Shown: piece after piece, positions 29,468 to 38,445 of the stretch
How positions within the stretch are numbered: the first letter of the stretch is position 1
Layout of the letters: each line of letters begins with the position of its first letter
NCBI GenBank assembly: GCA_963669175.1
Contig: OY769902.1
Coordinates: 864,001 to 928,000 of the forward strand
Direction of reading: 5' to 3'
From: a bacterium
GTDB taxonomy: Bacteria; Electryoneota; Electryoneia; Electryoneales; Electryoneaceae
Length of the DNA: 64,000 bases
Notes under the pieces: generated by a model
The model's database searches: none
What the model was told of the DNA's origin: nothing
Seen by the model: the letters and a program-made list of their open reading frames with translations, nothing else
Translations under genes and position numbers: made by a program

Positions 29468-30067
29468 GTCCTGCCATCCTTTCGTCGACCCTCTCGCACG
29501 AAATCAAGATTTCGTGAAACGATTCACAAACTTTCCAAAAAAAAATCAAACACCTTTTCTCGCGTTTTCACACGAAAAGAAGACAAAAAGGCAGACGAAG
29601 GCCCGAGATTGACCGCCGCAGTCAACCCCCTGTTTCGCAACCATTTTATCCCCTTAAAAAGTTAGGAGTAATCAAAATTCCTGATCAAGGGGCTGAGAGT
29701 AGGAATATGTTAGGTTTATATAACAACAACACTACACCAACACTTCAAAAGATTTTGTTATTTACTGTTTATCAAAAGTTTGAATTTTTCTGGGTGATTT
29801 GGGAATAGGGGATTATTGTACCAAAACAGGCTAATTGTTAGGGGGTTCTAATTCTCAATAATTACGTCTGGATTTTTTTTGCCGGTTTTGGTGGGGGAAT
29901 AACGTGAGAAAATGTTGGGGGCCTCTTACTTTTGGTTGTGGTTTTCGAATTCTTGATTCTGAGGCTGTGGAAAATAGAGCCTTCGAAAACCAGTGGAAAC
30001 AAGCATCTGCCTCTTGTAGCGAGCCTGCAACTGGCTCTCGGCAATCGTGAGCCGTATATTAGCCGAA

Positions 30068-30248
30068 GTCTTCGGGGCCTGGTGCAATTCCAGACCGGCG
30101 GTGAGAGTCCGCGACTCCCGGGATAGCCTGTGAAAGAACAGCGGGTTAGAGGTCAGACAACATGAGCCTGCTACCCAGTTCTGAGGCGTTTCGGGACTGA
30201 ACCGGTGAGATTCCGGTACCGACGGTGAAAGTCCGGATGGGAGAAGGC
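30068..30248 (+). promoter_or_regulatory. FMN riboswitch (RFN element)
   Basis: TCTTCGGGGCCTGGTGCAATTCCAGACCGGCGGTGAGAGTCCGCG...TGAACCGGTGAGATTCCGGTACCGACGGTGAAAGTCCGGATGGGAGAAG upstream of ribD. Confidence 0.95.
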
Positions 30249-30372
30249 GGACCGGCGAAAGCCGGATACAAGCATGAGCGGGGGCGGCTGTATGCCGATC
30301 TCCCGAAACCACGTCCGCGTACGGATTAACGTCTGTATGGCCGGGTGTGCATGCGTTGCCATGACCCCTACG

Positions 30373-30410
30373 CCCCGACGGTTGTAAAACCGCAGGGGCT
30401 TTCTGTTTTT
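30373..30410 (+). terminator. Probable riboswitch terminator
   Basis: GCCCCGACGGTT-gtaa-AACCGCAGGGGC-TTTCTGTTTTT. Confidence 0.7.
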
Positions 30411-30500
30411 AGCCCTTTAAGTTGGAAAGTTATAGATTAGAAAATTATCAAGTTAATGCGTTATTGTGGTTCCGGAAAGTTTTACTGATTAGAAGGCAAT

Positions 30501-30704
30501 TAGCCTGCTTCAGCAGGCTCCTCTTAGCACCCGGCTTTAGCCGGGTGGCTGGGGATAACAGAAGCTATGAGCGCGCTTTAGCGTGCTTCAGTGTCATAGA
30601 ATCTATACAAATCCAGAAAGCACCCTGAAGGGCGCTCGAGTCCTTGTTGTCCTTGTTCCCCCGGCTAAAGCCGGGGGCTAAGAGGAGCAGGCTAAAGCCT
30701 GCTA
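30501..30704. repeat. REP doublet (REPIN-like) in the rib leader
   Basis: 45-bp arms 30501-30545 and 30660-30704 are near reverse complements, each made of small palindromes (CCCGGCTTTAGCCGGG). Confidence 0.85.
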
Positions 30705-30895
30705 ACAAAAATGAATATAAATTTTCGAAAGAGTGCAATCCGGGAAAATCAGACGCTATACAAGACAATGTAAGTTCTTCATCAGAATGTTTTTATCCTT
30801 GACATCCTGATCATCCTTTACATCCTGTAAATGGAACAGATACAGGCAGTAAATGCAACAGATACAGGCAACGACAGCAAACAACATACAGGCTT

Positions 30896-32008
30896 ATGTC
30901 TACATTCAGCGAACAAGATCACAGCATGATGCGTCGGGCGTTACGGTTGGCCAGGCGTGGACGTAGCTGGGTTGCGCCGAACCCGATGGTCGGAGCGGTG
31001 GTGGTGCGTGATGGTGAAATTGTGGGCGAGGGGTATCACCAGCGGTTCGGCGGTCCTCACGCCGAAGTGCATGCCTTGGAAAATGCCGGGGAGCGGGCGA
31101 AAGGCGCTGACTTGTATGTCACCCTGGAGCCTTGCTGCCATTTCGGGAAGACGCCACCATGCTCCAACCTGGTGATTGAAAAAGGGATCAAACGTGTTTT
31201 CGCGGCCATTGTGGACCCGAATCCATTGGTCAACGGTCGCGGATTGGAGCAGCTACGTAGCGCCGGGCTGGAGGTTCATGTCGGTCTGGAAACGGAGCAG
31301 GCGCGTGCCCTGAACGAATTTTACCTGAAGAAAGCCGCCACCGGGAAGCCGTGGGTCACTCTGAAGCTGGCCCAGACATTGGATGGCCGCATCGCCACAC
31401 GTACCGGGCACAGTCAGTGGATCACCGGTCCGAAAGCGCGTCAGATGGGCCATGCGCTGCGTGCCATGCACGACGCTATCCTGGTCGGCGCCGGGACAGT
31501 GCATGCGGACGATCCCACGCTCAATGTTCGTCACGTTCGCGGACGTAATCCCATCCGTATCGTCCTGGACACCAAGTGCGGCTTGCAGGAAAACTGCACC
31601 CTGTTGAACTCACCGGACATCGCCCCTACCTGGATTATCGCGTCAGACAGATGCAAGAATCTTCCCGACTGGGACACTCGTGATCACGTCAGCATCCTGC
31701 GTGTGCCGGAAGATGACGAGGGCACGATTGACCTGCATGAGCTGATGAGTATCCTGGGGCGGCGTGGGGTGAGTTCCATCCTGGTCGAAGGGGGACGTCA
31801 CATCTGGACACGATTCCTCGAAGAAGGCCTGGTAGACAAAATCGAAGCCTTTATTGCGCCGATGATCATGGGCGAAGGACTGGAAGCGATTGGCGATCTG
31901 GGCGTATTGAAGATTCCGGATGCTGTGAAACTGGATGATTTCCGCTGGCGCAGGGTTGGAACGGATTTACATGTGGTGGCCAAGGTTCACCCGCATTGGA
32001 GGCCGTAA
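30896..32008 (+). CDS. ribD: Riboflavin biosynthesis deaminase/reductase
   Basis: PNPMVGAV, HAEVHAL, TLEPCCHFGKTPPC, LDGRIA, VEGG. Confidence 0.98.
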   Translation: MSTFSEQDHSMMRRALRLARRGRSWVAPNPMVGAVVVRDGEIVGEGYHQRFGGPHAEVHALENAGERAKGADLYVTLEPCCHFGKTPPCSNLVIEKGIKRVFAAIVDPNPLVNGRGLEQLRSAGLEVHVGLETEQARALNEFYLKKAATGKPWVTLKLAQTLDGRIATRTGHSQWITGPKARQMGHALRAMHDAILVGAGTVHADDPTLNVRHVRGRNPIRIVLDTKCGLQENCTLLNSPDIAPTWIIASDRCKNLPDWDTRDHVSILRVPEDDEGTIDLHELMSILGRRGVSSILVEGGRHIWTRFLEEGLVDKIEAFIAPMIMGEGLEAIGDLGVLKIPDAVKLDDFRWRRVGTDLHVVAKVHPHWRP

Positions 32009-32664
32009 TGTTTACCGGACTGGTGGAAGAAGTCGGCACAATTCGCATGATGCGCCGCCGTGGGGACGGAGCTATCCTCACCATAGAAGCTCGCAGGGTG
32101 CTGGAAGATGTACAAAAGGGCGACAGCATCGCTATTGCCGGGGTTTGTCAGACTGTCGTGCATTTCCAGCCGGGCTGGTTCCAGGTGGAAGCGGTGAAGG
32201 AGACGCTTGAACGGACACGTTTTGCCGAGTGGAGCCGTGGGCAGAAGGTCAACCTGGAACGCGCCATGCGTCCCATCGACCGGCTGGGCGGACACCTGGT
32301 GCAGGGGCATGTAGACGGTATGGCGGAGGTAGCGGGCATCAAACGCCTGGAGAGTTCTCACCGCCTGACCCTCCGTCCGCTTAATGGTGACATGACCTAT
32401 ATCGTGGAAAAAGGTTCGATCTGCCTGGATGGGATCAGCCTTACGGTAGCGTCACTGACTGACAGCACATTTGATGTGGAAATTATTCCGCATACCTGGG
32501 AAGCTACCACGCTGCACCTGCTGAAGGGTGGCGACAAGATTCACCTGGAGTGGGATGTCATCGCCAAATATGTGTACAAGATGCTACATGCTTTCAAAAG
32601 TGGAACAGACAAGAAAGAATCCGGCGGCCTGACTGCGGAAAAGTTGATGGAATATGGATTCTAA
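32008..32664 (+). CDS. ribE: Riboflavin synthase (alpha chain)
   Basis: MFTGLVEE, VNLERAM...GGHLVQGHVD, EKGSICLDGISLTV. Confidence 0.97.
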   Translation: MFTGLVEEVGTIRMMRRRGDGAILTIEARRVLEDVQKGDSIAIAGVCQTVVHFQPGWFQVEAVKETLERTRFAEWSRGQKVNLERAMRPIDRLGGHLVQGHVDGMAEVAGIKRLESSHRLTLRPLNGDMTYIVEKGSICLDGISLTVASLTDSTFDVEIIPHTWEATTLHLLKGGDKIHLEWDVIAKYVYKMLHAFKSGTDKKESGGLTAEKLMEYGF

Positions 32665-33193
32665 GTAAAGAAGGTAAAAAAAGTAAAGAAGGTGATAGAG
32701 TGTGACAGAATATTTTAAAGAGGGGTAATAGCATGACTACGAAATACAAGAGCTTTGAAGAGTTGGAAATATGGCAAAAGTGATGCAGGTTGGCAGCGGA
32801 TATTTACAGGGAAACCAAAGAAGGTTCCTGGAAAAATGATTATTCATTACGTGACCAAATCAGGAGAAGCGCAGTATCAATTCCATCCAATATTGCAGAA
32901 GGGTATGAACGAAACAGCAGAAAAGAGTTTATCCGTTTCTTGAAAATAGCAAAAGCATCATGTGGAGAATTTCGAACACAATTATATATAGCAAAAGCGA
33001 TAGGATATATGAATAAGGAGACTTTTGATAAGTTTCACGAATCATCAAGAAAAGTCAGCGCAATGATCCAATCTTTAATAAATAGTATCAGAGATTGAAG
33101 ACTTGGATATTCAAGATGTTACGAACAACATTCAGAAGCATTAAGAGGTTTTTACTTTCTTTACCTTTTTTACGTTTTTTACTTTTTTCACTT
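32662..33193. repeat. Inverted 9-nt-period repeats bracketing four-helix-bundle cassette 1
   Basis: Left 32662-32695 AAGTAAAGAAGGTAAAAAAAGTAAAGAAGG; right 33149-33193 TTTACTTTCTTTACCTTTTTTAC...ACTTTTTTCACTT. Confidence 0.8.
32733..33098 (+). pseudogene. Four-helix-bundle (23S rRNA IVS protein / Avd-like) gene with in-frame TGA at codon 17
   Basis: MTTKYKSFEELEIWQK*CRLAADIY...LRDQIRRSAVSIPSNIAEGYER...AKASCGEFRTQL; TGA 32781-83 aligns with GGA (Gly) of the paralog at 35082. Confidence 0.85.
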
Positions 33194-33213
33194 ATCCATA
33201 AGGAGAAACAGTC

Positions 33214-34416
33214 GTGATTTTTCATCCCATCGAAGAAGCGATAGAGGAGATCCGTGCAGGACGCATGATTATCCTGTGCGATGATGAAGACCGGGAGAAC
33301 GAAGGTGATCTGGTAATGGCGGCCTCGAAGGTGACCCCGGAAGCGGTCAACTTCATGGCGAAAAACGGGCGTGGCATGATCTGTATGTCCCTGAGCGAGG
33401 AAAAGGCTCATCAGCTCGACCTGGCGCCCATGGTGGATACCACGCATAATACCGCGTTGCACGGCACCAAGTTCACCATCACTATTGACGCTGCCGAAGG
33501 CACCACTACCGGTATTTCCGCCGCGGATCGTGCGATAACGATGCAGAAGGCTGCAGAAGCGGATGCCAAGCCGGAAGATTTCGGACGTCCGGGCCATGTT
33601 CACCCGATCATCGCTGCGCAAGGAGGAGTGTTGCGTCGGGCCGGGCACACCGAAGGCACAGTCGATCTGGCGCGTTTGGCCGGATGCCCACCATTGGGTG
33701 TTCTGTGTGAAGTGATGAACGAAGACGGTACTATGGCGCGTGTTCCCGACCTGCACAAGCGAGCGCAGGAATGGGGCCTGAAGATGTTCACTATCCGTGA
33801 TCTGATCGAGTATCGTCAGCGTACGGAAAAACTGATTGAACGTACCGTGACCGTCCCCCTGCCGACCTGGCATGGTGATTTTATGATGCACCATTACCAC
33901 GAGGTAGCTTCGGGCAAGGAACATGTTGCGTTGACATTGGGCGAGTGGGAAGAGGATGAGCCGGTGCTGGTGCGTGTGCATAGTGAATGCCTGACCGGGG
34001 ACACATTGCATTCCAAGCGCTGCGATTGTGGGCAGCAACGGGATCGCGCCCTGGAAATGATACAGGAAGAAGGCAAGGGTGTATTCCTGTACATGCGTCA
34101 GGAAGGACGTGGTATCGGCCTTGAAGCGAAGCTGAAAGCGTATGCCTTGCAGGACAAGGGACATGATACCGTGGAAGCCAACCTCTTGCTGGGATTCAAG
34201 CCAGATCTGCGTGACTACGGAATTGGCGCCCAGATCCTGCGTGATCTCGGGGTGCGCAAGATGAAGCTGATGACCAACAACCCGAAGAAAATCGTCGGCT
34301 TAAAGGGATACGGGCTGGAAGTAGTGGATCGTGCGCCGATCGAGATCGAGGCCAACGAGTACAATACCTACTACATGCAGACGAAAAAAGAAAAAATGGG
34401 GCATTTGTTGCACTAG
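33214..34416 (+). CDS. ribBA: DHBP synthase / GTP cyclohydrolase II
   Basis: [47 protein letters not shown]. Confidence 0.98.
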
Positions 34417-34489
34417 AAGTGAAAAAAGTGAAAAAAGTGGGCAGTGAAAAAAGAGCTTGAGTGGAAGCACTCTCAACTCTGACAGACTA

Positions 34490-34753
34490 GTGGACCATTG
34501 CACCTGATATGAGTTGTTCTGCTTGTTTTTGATGAGTCGATTTCAAGGCAGTTTCACGAAATCATAGTGGTTCTATTCTGAGTAAAACTAACGCAGAAAT
34601 CGGCCATCAAAAACAAGCCCTAAGGGAGCGCGCGCTTTGCCCCATGACTGCGTTGCTTTCCCTTGAAATAGCCCGCTATGTCTGTAGTCAAGCACCTTGT
34701 CCTGAGGTAAAGTGCGCAGCTCAGAAAACATCATAGCAGGTGCAATGGTCCAC
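34490..34753. mobile_element. Putative MITE, about 264 bp
   Basis: TIR GTGGACCATTGCACCTGATATGA / TCATAGCAGGTGCAATGGTCCAC (1 mismatch); flanks CTAG/CAAG; no ORF. Confidence 0.75.
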
Positions 34754-35081
34754 AAGCACGAAAACGGGAAACATGATAAAAGAAAACCAATAGAGAGTTA
34801 ATGAAAACCAAGAATTATAAAGTGTTGGACATTTTGAGGTGAATATAAGCATTAGTGGTTGATTTTTGTGGCGTTGCTGGTAAGCCGGATTGGGTCAAAG
34901 GTTTTGTCTGGCGTGATTACCTGCATAAAAGCGCAGTATCCATTCATTCGATTTTGGAAGCATAGAGTTTTCTGCCATGATTCAGTCGCTAATAATACAT
35001 TTATCGAGAGAGAATTAGTAAAGCAGTTTCTTTTTTCACTTTTTTCACTGTCAACTTTTTTCACTTTAGCAGGAGAACCGT

Positions 35082-35447
35082 ATGGCTACCAAGAAATTTG
35101 AAGAGTTGGATATCTGGAAGCGGGGATGCAGGTTGGCTGTTGATCTTTACGGCCTGACAGGAAAAGGGAATTGGGCAAAAGATTTTTCACTTCGAGACCA
35201 GGTCAGACGATGCGCAGTGTCTGTTCCGTCCAATGTTGCGGAAGGATTTGAACGTGGTGGAGTGAACGAATTCCGTCGTTTTCTCCGTATCGCCAAGGGA
35301 TCATGTGGCGAACTTCGTACCCAACTGTATATAGCACAGGCAATCGACTATATTTCCAAACCTGATATGGATCCTATTGTTCAGGAAACACGTGAAATCA
35401 GCGCCATGATTCAATCGCTAATAACCCATTTATCGAAAGAGAGTTAG
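35082..35447 (+). CDS. Four-helix-bundle protein (23S rRNA IVS protein / Avd-like)
   Basis: FEELDIWK...LRDQVRRCAVSVPSNVAEGFER...AKGSCGELRTQL; AGGAG RBS. Confidence 0.93.
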   Translation: MATKKFEELDIWKRGCRLAVDLYGLTGKGNWAKDFSLRDQVRRCAVSVPSNVAEGFERGGVNEFRRFLRIAKGSCGELRTQLYIAQAIDYISKPDMDPIVQETREISAMIQSLITHLSKES

Positions 35448-35510
35448 CAATACGGTTTCCTTTTTCACTTTTTTCACTGTCTACTTTTTTCACTCCAACA
35501 AGGGGTTATT

Positions 35511-35981
35511 GTGAAAACTATCGAAGGCATTCTGGACGGCAAGGGCAAGAAGTTTGGCATCGTTGCCAGCAGGTTTAACAGTTTTATCGTGGATCGGTTG
35601 ATTGAAGGCGCAGTGGATGGCTTGAAACGTCATGGCGTGGAAGAGGATGACATTATCCTGGCACGTTGTCCTGGCAGCTTCGAGATTCCTGGCGTGGCGA
35701 AGAAGATGGCCCGGAGCGGCAAAGTGGATGCCGTCATTGGGATTGGCAGCCTGATCCGTGGTGCAACAACCCATTACGATCACGTGGCCGCAGAAGTAAC
35801 AAAAGGCCTTGCGACGCTTTCGTTTGAGGGTGACATTCCGGTAATTTATGGGATTGTTACGGCAGAAAGCATTGAACAGGCCATTGAACGTGCGGGCACA
35901 AAAGCTGGCAACCGTGGCTTTGCTGCGGCCGAGAGCGCATTGGAAATGGTCAATCTTTACGGGAACCTGTCGTCCCTTTAG
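35511..35981 (+). CDS. ribH: 6,7-dimethyl-8-ribityllumazine synthase
   Basis: [37 protein letters not shown]. Confidence 0.98.
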
Positions 35982-36075
35982 ACGGTTAGAGTAATACTAT
36001 AGATCGAGACCGGCAGCGCGTTGTTCCAGGAAAGGGACAACGCCCGGACAGGGATGGGGATAGATTGGAGGACGT

Positions 36076-38445
36076 ATGCGCGGCCGCACTATGACTCTGC
36101 CTCTGGGAGTCCTGGTATTAGCCTTATTTGCCGATGTGGCGTTTGGGGATACCTGGCGAACAATCACTGCCGGGTGGAAACCCAACCGAGTTGCCATTGC
36201 CGGTGGAAAAATCTGGGCGTGTTCGGAAGGTGGATTGTACGATGTCGCAGCGGATTTCTCCGACATTCGTCTCCTGAACAAGGATGACGGGCTCTATGCG
36301 AATGATGTCAATGTGGTGCGCGCGGAAGCGGACGAGTCCCGCATATGGATCGGGTATGATGATGCCGGAGTTGATCGTATTGATCCGGCCACAGGTGACA
36401 TTGTTCAACGTATCCTTGATTTTGTCGAATCGAACGAAGTCTTCTCCATCTATGATATTTTCCTGTCCGAAACAGAAGCTTACGTTGCAACAGATATCGG
36501 TGTAAGCAAGCTTATTCCTTCCGATTATGACGATCTCTGGGTCGTAAGCGAAACCTACCGAAACTTCGGAGTCGGGACAGATGCCTGGCCTCAGCCGGTC
36601 AAGGTGGAGTCTGTGTTTTCGGACGGGGAATGGTTGTTTGTCGGTGGTATAAACGGTATCGCGGTCGCGTCGCTGGAAGACAATCTGTTTGATCCCGGGG
36701 TATGGCAGACATTTGACTTTGAGAGTGACCTTCCCCATCGTAGTGATGTGACAAACAATGTGAGCTGGTTTCGTCAGATGAACGGCGAAATCTATGCTGG
36801 ATTGTACCTGTTTACTGTCGTGCGCTGGGATGGAGAAGAGTGGGATCAGGCCACTCCGAACTACAGATTCTATTTCGGTATGACGGACTCGCCTGACAGC
36901 ACGATTTACTGTGGCGCCGGCAACGGTTTATATAAATGGAATCGTGATGACAACACCTTTGACCTGCTGATCCCCGACAGCCTGACCCAAAAAGTCTTTG
37001 ATCTGACCTGGGCTTTTGGCAATGTTGTGGGAGTTCTTGATACGGACGCCAAAGATAAGGGTGGTGTATTCAGGTTTGATCCTGATACAGGCGAGTATAT
37101 CGTAATTCACCCCAACACTCCTGGTGGGAACCAGGCTACCCAATTGCACATCGATGAAAGCGGTACGGTTTGGATTACAGCGCGCTCTTCCAATCAGAAC
37201 GGTATCTATGGGTTGACGGCGGAAGGGGTATGGGAATCGATCACACGTTTGGATCTGACTCAGGATGCGTTCAACTATACGTTCCTTGATATCGGGACAG
37301 ACGATGCCGGTGGGGTCTGGATCGGCAGCCGTGGCGATGGTCTTGTTCACATCATGCCCACTGACACCGGTCTTGTTCCAACCTGGTTTAATGCGGACAC
37401 CAGTACGGGGGCACGTTTGCAACCAATGTCCAATGATGGTTTTGTTCTGATCGGTGGTGTAGCACGTGAGCCGGGAAAAGGAATGTGGTTGGTAAACACC
37501 TATGCTGGCGATGAATTATCCGGTGTGCTTCGCAAGCCATTGATCTTTGTTCCTCTCGCCTGGTATACCGACCCGACCACAGAATGGCAGACATACAGCA
37601 CGGTTGATGGTGTACCAACGATTGATATCAAGAGTGTAATACGTGACCATTATGGACGTTTGTGGTTTGGTCCTCTTTCGGACGCTGACCAGTATTCCAT
37701 GGTGATGATGAACCCGGCCGGAACACCCATGAATCCGGATGATGATTCCTACATGACATTTGGCACCGGGGATGTCGGATTCACCATGGTCAACGATATG
37801 GTGCTGGATGATGAAGGGTTCCTGTGGGTTGGTGCGCCGGATGGATTGTACTACATCGACACGAACCATGACGATAGTTTTATCGTTGGATCTGTCACTG
37901 GTGCGCTGGGAGAGGAAATCACTGCTGTAGCCCTGGACCCGATGGGGCACATCTGGTGCGGTACCCACAACGGCGTGTCGGTATTTAATCCGGCACGGAT
38001 GAGCTGGGTGAATCACTATACGGTTGCCAGTGGCCGCTATCCGAGTCGATTGGTTGACGATGATATCACCTGCATGGAATTCAACGGAGAAACCGGGGAA
38101 GCCTGGATCGGGACCAACATCGGCGTTTCCGTGTTGACGACACCATACCGGAATTTCGGAGATGAACTGGGTGAGATTGATGTGCGTCCCCAACCTTTCC
38201 TGCTAGGTAATGATGGCGTATCCCTCCAGTTTATGGGGGAAAGCCTGGTCAACGGTGCAACGATAAAGATTTTCACTCCTTCAGGCAGACTGGTGCGTGA
38301 ACTTAGCTTCAGCGAAGCCTCTTCAGAGGGGTGGGATGGACGCAACAAGGAAGGTGAACTGGTTTCCAGCGGAGTCTACCTGTTGCTGGTGACAGACCCG
38401 GAAGGACATTCCAAAGTTGGGAAAGCGGCTGTTGTGCGTAAATAA
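36076..38445 (+). CDS. PorZ-like T9SS propeller protein
   Basis: GDTWRT, LNKDDGL, YVATDIGV, propeller repeats, GEAWIGTNIGVS, RPQPF...IKIFTPSGRLV...WDGRN...SSGVYL...KVGKAAVVR. Confidence 0.8.
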   Translation: MRGRTMTLPLGVLVLALFADVAFGDTWRTITAGWKPNRVAIAGGKIWACSEGGLYDVAADFSDIRLLNKDDGLYANDVNVVRAEADESRIWIGYDDAGVDRIDPATGDIVQRILDFVESNEVFSIYDIFLSETEAYVATDIGVSKLIPSDYDDLWVVSETYRNFGVGTDAWPQPVKVESVFSDGEWLFVGGINGIAVASLEDNLFDPGVWQTFDFESDLPHRSDVTNNVSWFRQMNGEIYAGLYLFTVVRWDGEEWDQATPNYRFYFGMTDSPDSTIYCGAGNGLYKWNRDDNTFDLLIPDSLTQKVFDLTWAFGNVVGVLDTDAKDKGGVFRFDPDTGEYIVIHPNTPGGNQATQLHIDESGTVWITARSSNQNGIYGLTAEGVWESITRLDLTQDAFNYTFLDIGTDDAGGVWIGSRGDGLVHIMPTDTGLVPTWFNADTSTGARLQPMSNDGFVLIGGVAREPGKGMWLVNTYAGDELSGVLRKPLIFVPLAWYTDPTTEWQTYSTVDGVPTIDIKSVIRDHYGRLWFGPLSDADQYSMVMMNPAGTPMNPDDDSYMTFGTGDVGFTMVNDMVLDDEGFLWVGAPDGLYYIDTNHDDSFIVGSVTGALGEEITAVALDPMGHIWCGTHNGVSVFNPARMSWVNHYTVASGRYPSRLVDDDITCMEFNGETGEAWIGTNIGVSVLTTPYRNFGDELGEIDVRPQPFLLGNDGVSLQFMGESLVNGATIKIFTPSGRLVRELSFSEASSEGWDGRNKEGELVSSGVYLLLVTDPEGHSKVGKAAVVRK

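Follow-up and report, generated by a model that had tools for sequence, protein, structure and literature searches.

What is half a kilobase of AT-rich DNA, closed at both ends by complementary short repeats, doing between two genes of a bacterial riboflavin operon? The question arises in contig OY769902.1 of assembly GCA_963669175.1, from a member of the Electryoneaceae (phylum Electryoneota), of which a stretch of 64,000 nucleotides (nt), positions 864,001 to 928,000 of the forward strand, was analysed; this whole stretch is called the window, and coordinates below are window positions on the + strand unless labelled G000:C1 (genome). The insert, here named cassette 1, lies between ribE and ribBA and carries a gene of the PF05635 four-helix-bundle family, whose members are also encoded in intervening sequences (IVSs) of 23S rRNA that bear an open reading frame (ORF). 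We lean, without great assurance, toward reading cassette 1 as an IVS-type, hairpin-armed cassette in an mRNA spacer, which would be co-transcribed with its operon and whose arms would form an RNase III-type duplex.

The insert between ribE and ribBA

The features on which the argument rests are the following.

31996-32664, + strand: ribE, riboflavin synthase alpha chain (PF00677 Lum_binding, two stretches, E 2.7e-47); stop codon TAA at 32662-32664
32653-32659, + strand: TATGGAT in the last ribE codons, an outer 7-bp stem extension that pairs with ATCCATA at 33194-33200, abutting the ribosome-binding site (RBS); outermost helix of the predicted minimum free energy (MFE) fold
32662-32700, + strand: 5' arm of cassette 1, purine-rich tandem units at 9-nt spacing, of the GTAAAGAAG / GTAAAAAAA type; direct repeats D2 and D9, inverted pairs I1-I5
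32733-33098, + strand: PF05635/TIGR02436 four-helix-bundle gene of cassette 1, with an in-frame TGA (Pfam 132.2 bits, cut-off 33.8; TIGR02436 131.1, cut-off 24)
33149-33194, + strand: 3' arm of cassette 1, 4-5 pyrimidine-rich 9-nt units, TTTTTTACN / TTCTTTACC; direct-repeat family D1 with 4 copies at spacing 9; complement of the 5' arm
33200-33205, + strand: Shine-Dalgarno sequence AAGGAG of ribBA, as read from the sequence, directly 3' of the stem
33214-34416, + strand: ribBA, 3,4-dihydroxy-2-butanone 4-phosphate synthase / GTP cyclohydrolase II (PF00926 E 1.6e-84, PF00925 E 2.7e-74); GTG start at 33214

Cassette 1, an element of 533 nt in the ribE-ribBA spacer of 549 nt, exactly takes up the distance from the stop codon to the RBS. 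The original prediction described purine-rich repeats of 9-nt period that begin at the ribE stop codon and a pyrimidine-rich complement that ends just before the ribBA RBS, and the sequence confirms both: the units of the 5' arm read TAAGTAAAG AAGGTAAAA AAAGTAAAG AAGGTGATA, the first triplet being the ribE stop TAA, and the 3' arm ends at 33194, 5 nt ahead of the RBS AAGGAG. Positions 32663-32693 and 33154-33184, which lie 460 nt apart, are 87% complementary across 31 nt, and the arms pair in several further registers offset by 9 nt (I1-I5). Their local alignment scores 42; 30 shuffles averaged 18.4 and reached 28 at most. It had also been proposed that pairing would loop out the AT-rich insert and bring the stop codon and the RBS together. 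The predicted MFE fold of the RNA from 32650 to 33225 does close the entire insert within the cassette 1 stem, at -128.7 kcal/mol against a shuffle mean of -105.9 (z -4.29; none of 100 shuffles equalled it). Because the fold prolongs this stem outward through the 7-bp pairing of TATGGAT with ATCCATA, which reaches the RBS, it does place the stop codon next to the RBS.

Within the insert the GC content is 0.30-0.40, compared with 0.53-0.62 in ribE and ribBA. On its sense strand there is no ORF longer than 62 aa besides the PF05635 frame and no transposase ORF, so that the earlier claim of an element with no transposase of its own holds. No sense-strand promoter- or terminator-like site was found in 32500-33300, where counts did not depart from those of shuffles, with the reservation that the consensus may not fit the host organism. 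ORF-bearing 23S IVSs are recognised by an S23p-type ORF lying within complementary termini able to form a stem of about 28 bp or longer, and cassette 1 has such an ORF within such termini.

A recently broken gene

Scores against both PF05635 and TIGR02436 are far above the cut-offs, and the family originally named for this gene is therefore the right one. Of the conserved family motif, GxxRxxxSxxxNxxE as given in PMC3936711, the part RxxxSxxxNxxE is fitted by RSAVSIPSNIAE in cassette 1 and by RCAVSVPSNVAE in a second cassette downstream (cassette 2, see below), the leading G being off the expected spacing. With the cassette 2 protein as query, the closest solved structure is XCC0516 (PDB 2gsc, E 3.4e-16), followed by 2rld (E 0.004), both being sequence relatives; Avd, the four-helix-bundle protein of diversity-generating retroelements (DGRs), was not among the matches in this sequence search of solved structures.

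On one point the original prediction needs correction, as the cassette 1 gene is broken by an in-frame TGA at codon 17 (32781-32783). The source run (X1) has only T at the first base of this codon, position 32781, at a depth of 32. A contig from another study (run X4), which is about 91% identical and corresponds to 32665-34103, has G at 32781 and thus a GGA codon, and glycine also occupies the aligned position in cassette 2 and in the orthologue of cassette 2 from a genome of the same genus. Within the ORF there are at least 26 differences to the X4 relative, and of the 26 counted by hand 19 fall in third codon positions, which indicates that the cassette 1 protein was under purifying selection until recently. 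The gene is thus a fresh pseudogene in this genome, the product of a recent nonsense mutation. Reading of the TGA as a recoded glycine was considered and rejected, because the neighbouring genes are open under table 11 and the relative has GGA.

Two further cassettes in the genome

The genome contains three PF05635 genes, all with inverted arms, and each of the three cassettes occupies an intra-operon spacer exactly, from a stop codon to the RBS that follows. The units of the arms differ from one cassette to another, being GTAAAGAAG in cassette 1, GTGAAAAAA in the second and AATTAAG in the third. The second lies in the next spacer of the same operon, the 1094 nt between ribBA and ribH, which is organised as follows.

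34417-34453, + strand: array of GTGAAAAAA units that opens the second cassette region as its 5' arm, 1 nt past the ribBA stop; pairs with 35456-35494 in the predicted fold
34486-34764, + strand: repeat resembling a miniature inverted-repeat transposable element (MITE), inside the degraded left cassette; copies elsewhere in the genome, terminal inverted matches, strong internal hairpin
34801-35020, + strand: remnant of a further PF05635 gene (tblastn 34801-34950; N-terminal 50 residues 42% identical to cassette 2; similar C-terminal tail, 34975-35066 resembling 35405-35494)
35027-35066, + strand: internal pyrimidine arm of the remnant cassette, TTTTTTCAC units; direct pair with 35461-35494
35082-35447, + strand: intact PF05635 gene of cassette 2 (Pfam 116.2 bits; TIGR02436 114.2; PDB 2gsc E 3.4e-16)
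35456-35494, + strand: TTTTTTCAC units that make up the 3' arm of cassette 2 and stop 9 nt ahead of the RBS-like AAGGGG of ribH
35511-35981, + strand: ribH, lumazine synthase (PF00885 E 3.2e-52)

Since the remnant gene has a pyrimidine arm of its own, the ribBA-ribH spacer is a tandem of two cassettes that share one purine arm. In the fold of this region the first array pairs with the last. The MITE-like repeat measures about 275 nt with terminal inverted repeats of about 35 nt, recurs in the genome as 4 other copies of about 270-280 nt that are 93-96% identical, along with partial or more diverged ones, and shows elevated read depth in the source run. The third PF05635 gene lies between two genes for subunits of a 2-oxoacid:ferredoxin oxidoreductase, in the same orientation as these. 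Built of 7-nt AATTAAG units, its arms run from the stop codon of the preceding gene to a point 9 nt short of the following RBS, and the fold has a z of -3.95.

The operon upstream of cassette 1 comprises ribD (30896-32008, + strand, riboflavin operon gene) and, ahead of the rib genes, a flavin mononucleotide (FMN) riboswitch, RF00050, at 30064-30252 (94.9 bits). The latter was the sole Rfam match in 29500-36200 at E 0.1, the cassettes giving none. Small repeats fill the roughly 640 nt between the riboswitch and the ribD start at 30896. Downstream, 36076-38445 encodes a protein of 789 aa related to type IX secretion, in which a PorZ-type beta-propeller at the N-terminus is combined with two-component-regulator propeller repeats and an FlgD-Ig-like domain at the C-terminus.

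Presence and absence among relatives

Rib operons of 30 relatives were compared, as first proposed in order to look for a clean absence of the insert: 28 of them, from 14 other genomes of the bacterial family and 14 of other families of the phylum, lack a PF05635 gene. In the more distant genomes the rib spacers are mostly shorter than 120 nt. No remnant of a PF05635 gene was detected in the rib spacers of the 28 other genomes by tblastn (14 family members, E 0.05), a weak match at the edge of L052 being the only hit.

Cassette 1 is present in the approximately 91% identical X4 relative. In the genome of the same genus, cassette 2 is retained between ribBA and ribH, with a protein 71% identical to that of cassette 2, compared with 90-91% for RibBA and RibH, and with both arms altered in concert (GTGGAAAAC / GTTTTCCAC in place of GTGAAAAAA / TTTTTTCAC). 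The oxidoreductase cassette is retained there as well. No PF05635 gene was found in the 408 nt that precede ribBA in this genome, where the contig ends; a short pyrimidine remnant before the RBS is all that this part of the spacer holds. Such differences in presence and absence, even within a genus, mark the cassettes as insertions of limited age. Between the present genome and that of the same genus, orthologous cassette genes have dN values of 0.33 and 0.28, against 0.055 for ribBA (dS 1.76); their synonymous sites are saturated, so that no dN/dS ratio is given.

Solo short-period arrays stand after the ribE stop or before ribBA in five genomes from other genera of the family (L038, L044, L046, L047 and L049), in spacers that have no PF05635 gene. 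The units are AGGCTAC (4 copies), AGAGCCC (5 copies), GCAACATACA (2 copies), CACACAGA (3 copies) and GGGAGTC. It is possible that solo arrays in cassette-free rib spacers are scars of former cassettes or landing sites for new ones.

Inverted arms at PF05635 genes across bacteria

The generality of this anatomy was examined by taking 260 nt on either side of each PF05635 gene and aligning the upstream flank with the reverse-complemented downstream flank, a score of at least 36 being called an arm. As a control, the downstream flank was reversed without being complemented. In the bacterial family, 24 of 26 loci had inverted arms, a further locus having been dropped for a short flank. Of the two misses, one scored 32 and the other is cassette 2, for which the distance to the partner arm is 630 nt. 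Among closer relatives within the phylum, 17 of 25 loci had arms (one dropped, short flank; control maximum 22), and so did 44 of 75 loci from other phyla, including Acidobacteriota, Desulfobacterota, Planctomycetota, Nitrospirota, Verrucomicrobiota, Bacteroidota and Chloroflexota, for which 80 had been fetched and 5 dropped because of short flanks. None of the 75 other-phyla controls reached the threshold, nor did any of the combined 100 (75 other-phyla and 25 same-phylum loci).

The armed cassettes form a rather uniform set. In the first 68, the median element is 509 nt long (415-827), the median pairing spans 33.5 nt at 89% complementarity, and 61 have a lower GC content than their flanks. 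Arms are clearly periodic in 52 of these 68, with a period of 7 nt in 41, 8 nt in 7, 9 nt in 2 and 10 nt in 2, and with 48 distinct units. Complementarity is thus kept despite changing arm sequence, which implies the maintenance of pairing or of some copying from arm to arm.

Position and strand are constrained too. At 37 of 65 loci an upstream ORF on the same strand ends close to the 5' arm, whose start falls between -10 and +15 nt of that end. The 5' arm has more G than C in 74 of 85 cassettes. With respect to co-directional neighbours, the orientation is the same at 52 and opposed at 11 of 100 loci, as counted with crude ORF-based calls.

Unit sequence follows the protein clade to some degree. 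By our own reading, units of 8-9 nt with an AAGT core occur in about 15 of 19 relatives that are at least 44% identical, the clade of cassettes 1 and 2, which makes the 9-nt period seen here a rare variant of an 8-nt design. AATTARG units are found in all 6 members of the clade of the third cassette, and AGGCTGW-like units in the commonest PF05635 clade, which covers many phyla. The longest arms seen, of about 210 nt, are those of the cultivable Vreelandella sedimenti QX-2 (L163), where heptamers of the GTGAGTG/GTGAATG type face ACAACTC units with a score of 219. Hymenobacter saemangeumensis JCM 17923 (L162) and Geobacter sp. AOG1 (L165) are further carriers that can be cultivated, and like the former strain they are non-pathogenic.

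Arrays without a gene

The original prediction also implied that the repeats are associated with this family genome-wide. In one direction this is so, the genes being strongly tied to inverted arrays; in the other it is not, as units of the cassette type with 9-nt period occur at about 60 genome sites (63 array calls, compared with 16 in reversed-sequence controls) that are mostly solo and distant from PF05635 genes. Many of these solo 9-nt arrays adjoin GC-rich hairpins and other arrays. In total the genome has 622 non-overlapping arrays with periods of 6-11 nt, of which 206 have a period of 9 nt, 190 of 8 nt and 112 of 7 nt. On a crude gene map, G-rich arrays lie near the upstream stop (median 37.5 nt) and C-rich arrays nearer the next start (median 91 nt), which is the polarity of the cassette arms.

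Unit families in the genome include AATTAGG, ACGCAAAG, AGGATAAA, AAGTTGGA and GTAAAGAAG. Arrays are about threefold more frequent between convergent genes (108) than between divergent ones (37) on the same crude gene map. Arrays of ACGCAAAG and CTTTGCGT form four inverted pairs, each ending in GTTTCAC..., around 185-357 nt of AT-rich DNA that has no convincing ORF, at the following genome positions.

G000:C1 1520977-1521210: inverted ACGCAAAG / CTTTGCGT pair
G000:C1 2546071-2546405: inverted ACGCAAAG / CTTTGCGT pair
G000:C1 2908035-2908328: inverted ACGCAAAG / CTTTGCGT pair
G000:C1 3842457-3842862: inverted ACGCAAAG / CTTTGCGT pair

These pairs are hairpin-armed elements whose cargo is non-coding. 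A unit of about 4.2 kb is present in two inverted copies (G000:C1 283497-287850 and 1939768-1944114), each bounded by the same sequence of about 90 nt followed by a 9-nt array, in direct orientation.

Comparison with known elements

The link of this protein family to 23S rRNA IVSs and to Avd, which was part of the original prediction, is in print, in the relevant passages of PMC4990558 and PMC10053308. The first of these describes the IVS in helix 45 of Coxiella burnetii 23S rRNA as an element of 428-444 nt with an S23p ORF and a terminal stem of 28 bp, three tandem GACAGAT heptamers just upstream of the start whose copy number depends on the strain, a GC content below that of the genome and a decaying ORF; RNase III cuts the stem in vitro. 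The same source dates back to the early 1990s the open questions of where ORF-bearing IVSs and the very large four-helix-bundle family encoded in them come from and what purpose they serve. Cassette 1 shares with the IVSs of Coxiella and Leptospira described there the S23p/PF05635 family, an enclosing stem of about 30 bp and the lack of a mobility gene, and it is similar in size (533 nt compared with 428-444 nt). As in Coxiella, tandem short repeats of variable copy number stand in a purine-rich 5' arm before the start, and GC is low. The ORF decays in both, through a nonsense codon in cassette 1 and through deletions in the rRNA IVS (PMC4990558).

The two kinds of element also differ. The 23S IVSs occupy helix 25 or 45, whereas cassette 1 separates two protein-coding genes in an mRNA operon. 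Only one 23S gene is present in this genome, and at 2954 nt, against 2925 positions in the model, it contains no insertion. The units are 9 nt long in cassette 1 and 7 nt in the Coxiella IVS. RNase III cutting has been demonstrated for the rRNA IVS (PMC4990558), whereas for cassette 1 it is predicted by analogy; the gene for RNase III (rnc) is present in the genome. After cutting, rRNA fragments are held together by the ribosome, and an mRNA has no such scaffold.

The passages on Avd in PMC10053308 describe a four-helix-bundle homologue that forms pentamers and acts in a protein-RNA complex, and they compare 2gsc with 4DWL. The cassette proteins thus belong to a family homologous to the Avd of DGRs (PMC10053308), but the cassettes have neither template nor variable repeats. 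A search of the whole genome (95.9% complete) gave 0 matches to the reverse transcriptase model RVT_1, and the lack of a reverse transcriptase excludes a DGR accessory role here.

In cyanobacteria, intergenic heptamer arrays are known as short tandemly repeated repetitive (STRR) sequences. Such arrays have further been reported as TAACTGA in Beggiatoaceae (PMC4679880), and in Nostoc and, as GGGAATC with 70-75 pairs in convergent arrangement, in Xanthomonas (PMC4692102). The arrays described here resemble those of Xanthomonas, Beggiatoaceae and the STRR type in that they have a short period (7-9 nt), are intergenic and gene-oriented, and sometimes form inverted pairs. They differ from them in that the inverted pair encloses a four-helix-bundle gene; the terms "four helix", "S23" and "intervening sequence" do not occur in PMC4679880 or PMC4692102. 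A survey of full-text literature outside subscription journals yielded no paper that links the PF05635 family to flanking inverted tandem arrays outside rRNA.

RNase III stems in phage T7 early mRNA and in rRNA operons are short local hairpins. Cassette 1 resembles the T7 early mRNA stems in offering a long imperfect duplex between cistrons of the same transcript, and differs from them in having a 460-nt loop with a gene of its own. For RNase III stems between cistrons, PMC4990558 cites Dunn and Studier 1973. Genes of the PF05635 family have also been noted inside cas loci by two CRISPR surveys (PMC3936711 and PMC10910872), which fits a cassette that lodges between operon genes. Terminal inverted repeat (TIR) transposons and MITEs are distinct from the cassettes, whose ends are not conserved among the copies in one genome. 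Inspection by eye showed no target-site duplication flanking cassette 1 or cassette 3.

A model for cassette 1 and its alternatives

The reading that we favour starts from what can be observed directly, namely the anatomy of the cassette, its protein family, the generality and co-orientation of such cassettes and their presence or absence among relatives. By this account, the insertion of cassette 1 between ribE and ribBA would have taken place in the lineage of this genus. Having no recognisable promoter or terminator, the cassette would be transcribed along with the rib operon, and its arms would pair in the transcript to give an imperfect duplex of about 30-45 bp with the gene looped out. 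By analogy with the Coxiella rRNA element that is cut in vitro, this duplex would be an RNase III-type substrate. Cutting would free the cassette RNA, and the 3' end of ribE and the 5' end of ribBA would stay paired at the base of the stem; with the host fragments held at the foot of the stem in this way, the insert would do the operon little harm. "Excision" would then mean RNase III cutting without re-joining. The gene has lately been lost to the nonsense mutation, with the arms persisting. Transcription through the insert, RNA pairing, RNase III cutting and harmlessness are the inferred steps of this account.

Several points weigh against it. The outermost 7-bp helix of the predicted stem may have arisen by chance, and 39 of 124 loci remained below the arm threshold. 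In 68 arm pairs, mismatches of the G-U type number 65 and those of the A-C type 84 (by locus, 25 against 24, with 19 ties), and this spectrum gives no sign that it is sense RNA, rather than DNA or copying, that keeps the arms complementary. The only 9-nt arrays that adjoin a PF05635 gene are those at the two rib-operon cassette sites, and the abundance of solo arrays is a behaviour of the arrays that the model leaves unaccounted for. Finally, cutting by RNase III within an mRNA spacer might equally reduce ribBA expression.

A symmetric mismatch spectrum of this kind would result from template switching within a strand or from one arm being copied from the other, and it lends some weight to a DNA-level alternative, to which we assign a minor but real chance. 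Here the cassettes would be foldback elements whose arrays act as hairpins or cruciforms on single-stranded DNA at replication, or as recombination substrates; the cassette would be moved by host functions or by an enzyme acting in trans, and RNA pairing would be a by-product. Arms built of tandem units resemble those of foldback transposons, the succession of purine arm, remnant, pyrimidine arm, gene and pyrimidine arm in the second region suggests unequal recombination between arms, and the other inverted pairs, ACGCAAAG ... CTTTGCGT around 185-357 nt of AT-rich non-coding DNA, as well as the presence and absence of cassettes in relatives, would be expected of such elements. However, no recombinase or transposase lies in or beside the cassettes, the arms vary among copies in one genome so that no common end-recognising enzyme is apparent, and cassettes 1 and 3 lack a target duplication visible by eye. 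The co-orientation (52 against 11) and the excess of G over C in the 5' arm (74 of 85) indicate a transcript or a strand-specific process, and the homologous rRNA element is a demonstrated RNA-processing substrate (PMC4990558). A further proposal, which seems to us somewhat less likely again, is that protein and repeats are cognate partners: the arms, as RNA or single-stranded DNA, would be binding sites for the putatively ring-forming protein of the cassette, each clade having its own unit, and binding would serve autoregulation, duplex protection or spreading. That the unit core tracks the protein clade (AAGT-core, AATTARG and AGGCTGW-like units), that the period is held (7 nt in 41 of 52 periodic arms) despite sequence drift, and that polarity is conserved (74 of 85) all speak for it, as does the fact that the relative Avd works in a protein-RNA complex (PMC10053308). 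Common descent of gene and arms would, however, give the same correlation, and units are diverse within one clade of one bacterial family (GTCCTGA, GGCTATA, GGGCTCG, GAGCTGT and others). Moreover, the arms of cassette 1 persist with a broken gene, and solo arrays are far more numerous than genes. The DNA-level foldback and protein-arm binding readings are not mutually exclusive.

In a genome so rich in repeats, with 622 short-period arrays, 9-nt arrays widespread without a gene and a true multicopy MITE in the second region, one may also ask whether cassette 1 is an ordinary TIR transposon remnant or a MITE that happens to carry a gene, or whether generic intergenic arrays and a small gene have met by chance. 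We regard this as very improbable, given that the association of gene and array extends across phyla with 0 of 100 controls at threshold, that the arms are not conserved among copies in the genome and no transposase accompanies them, and that all three copies reach exactly from a stop codon to the following RBS within an operon.

Implications

The IVS anatomy in ordinary operons provides a far larger and more tractable set of cases than rRNA does, from dozens of phyla and including cultivable strains, with the following in common: the gene, short tandem units that build a stem of about 30 bp, a length of about 0.5 kb and a fixed polarity. RNase III processing of mRNAs at such stems, the neutrality of the insert for the operon and the binding of the protein to its own arms are directly testable now. 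For annotation, some caution is advised, as arrays beside PF05635 genes can be mistaken for other repeat systems.

The cassettes are also a possible source of the abundant intergenic arrays of the heptamer type in Xanthomonas, cyanobacteria and Beggiatoaceae. More speculatively, and with the expectation that it may well prove wrong, it is tempting to suppose that the 23S IVS is one niche of widespread, hitherto undescribed hairpin-armed cassettes that colonise any transcribed spacer, be it in mRNA operons or rRNA helices, in most phyla. A ring-forming protein would then recognise the clade-specific arms of its own transcript or DNA, and arrays shed by such cassettes might explain part of the excess of 7-9-nt intergenic repeats, including the approximately 60 solo 9-nt arrays and several hundred others in this genome.

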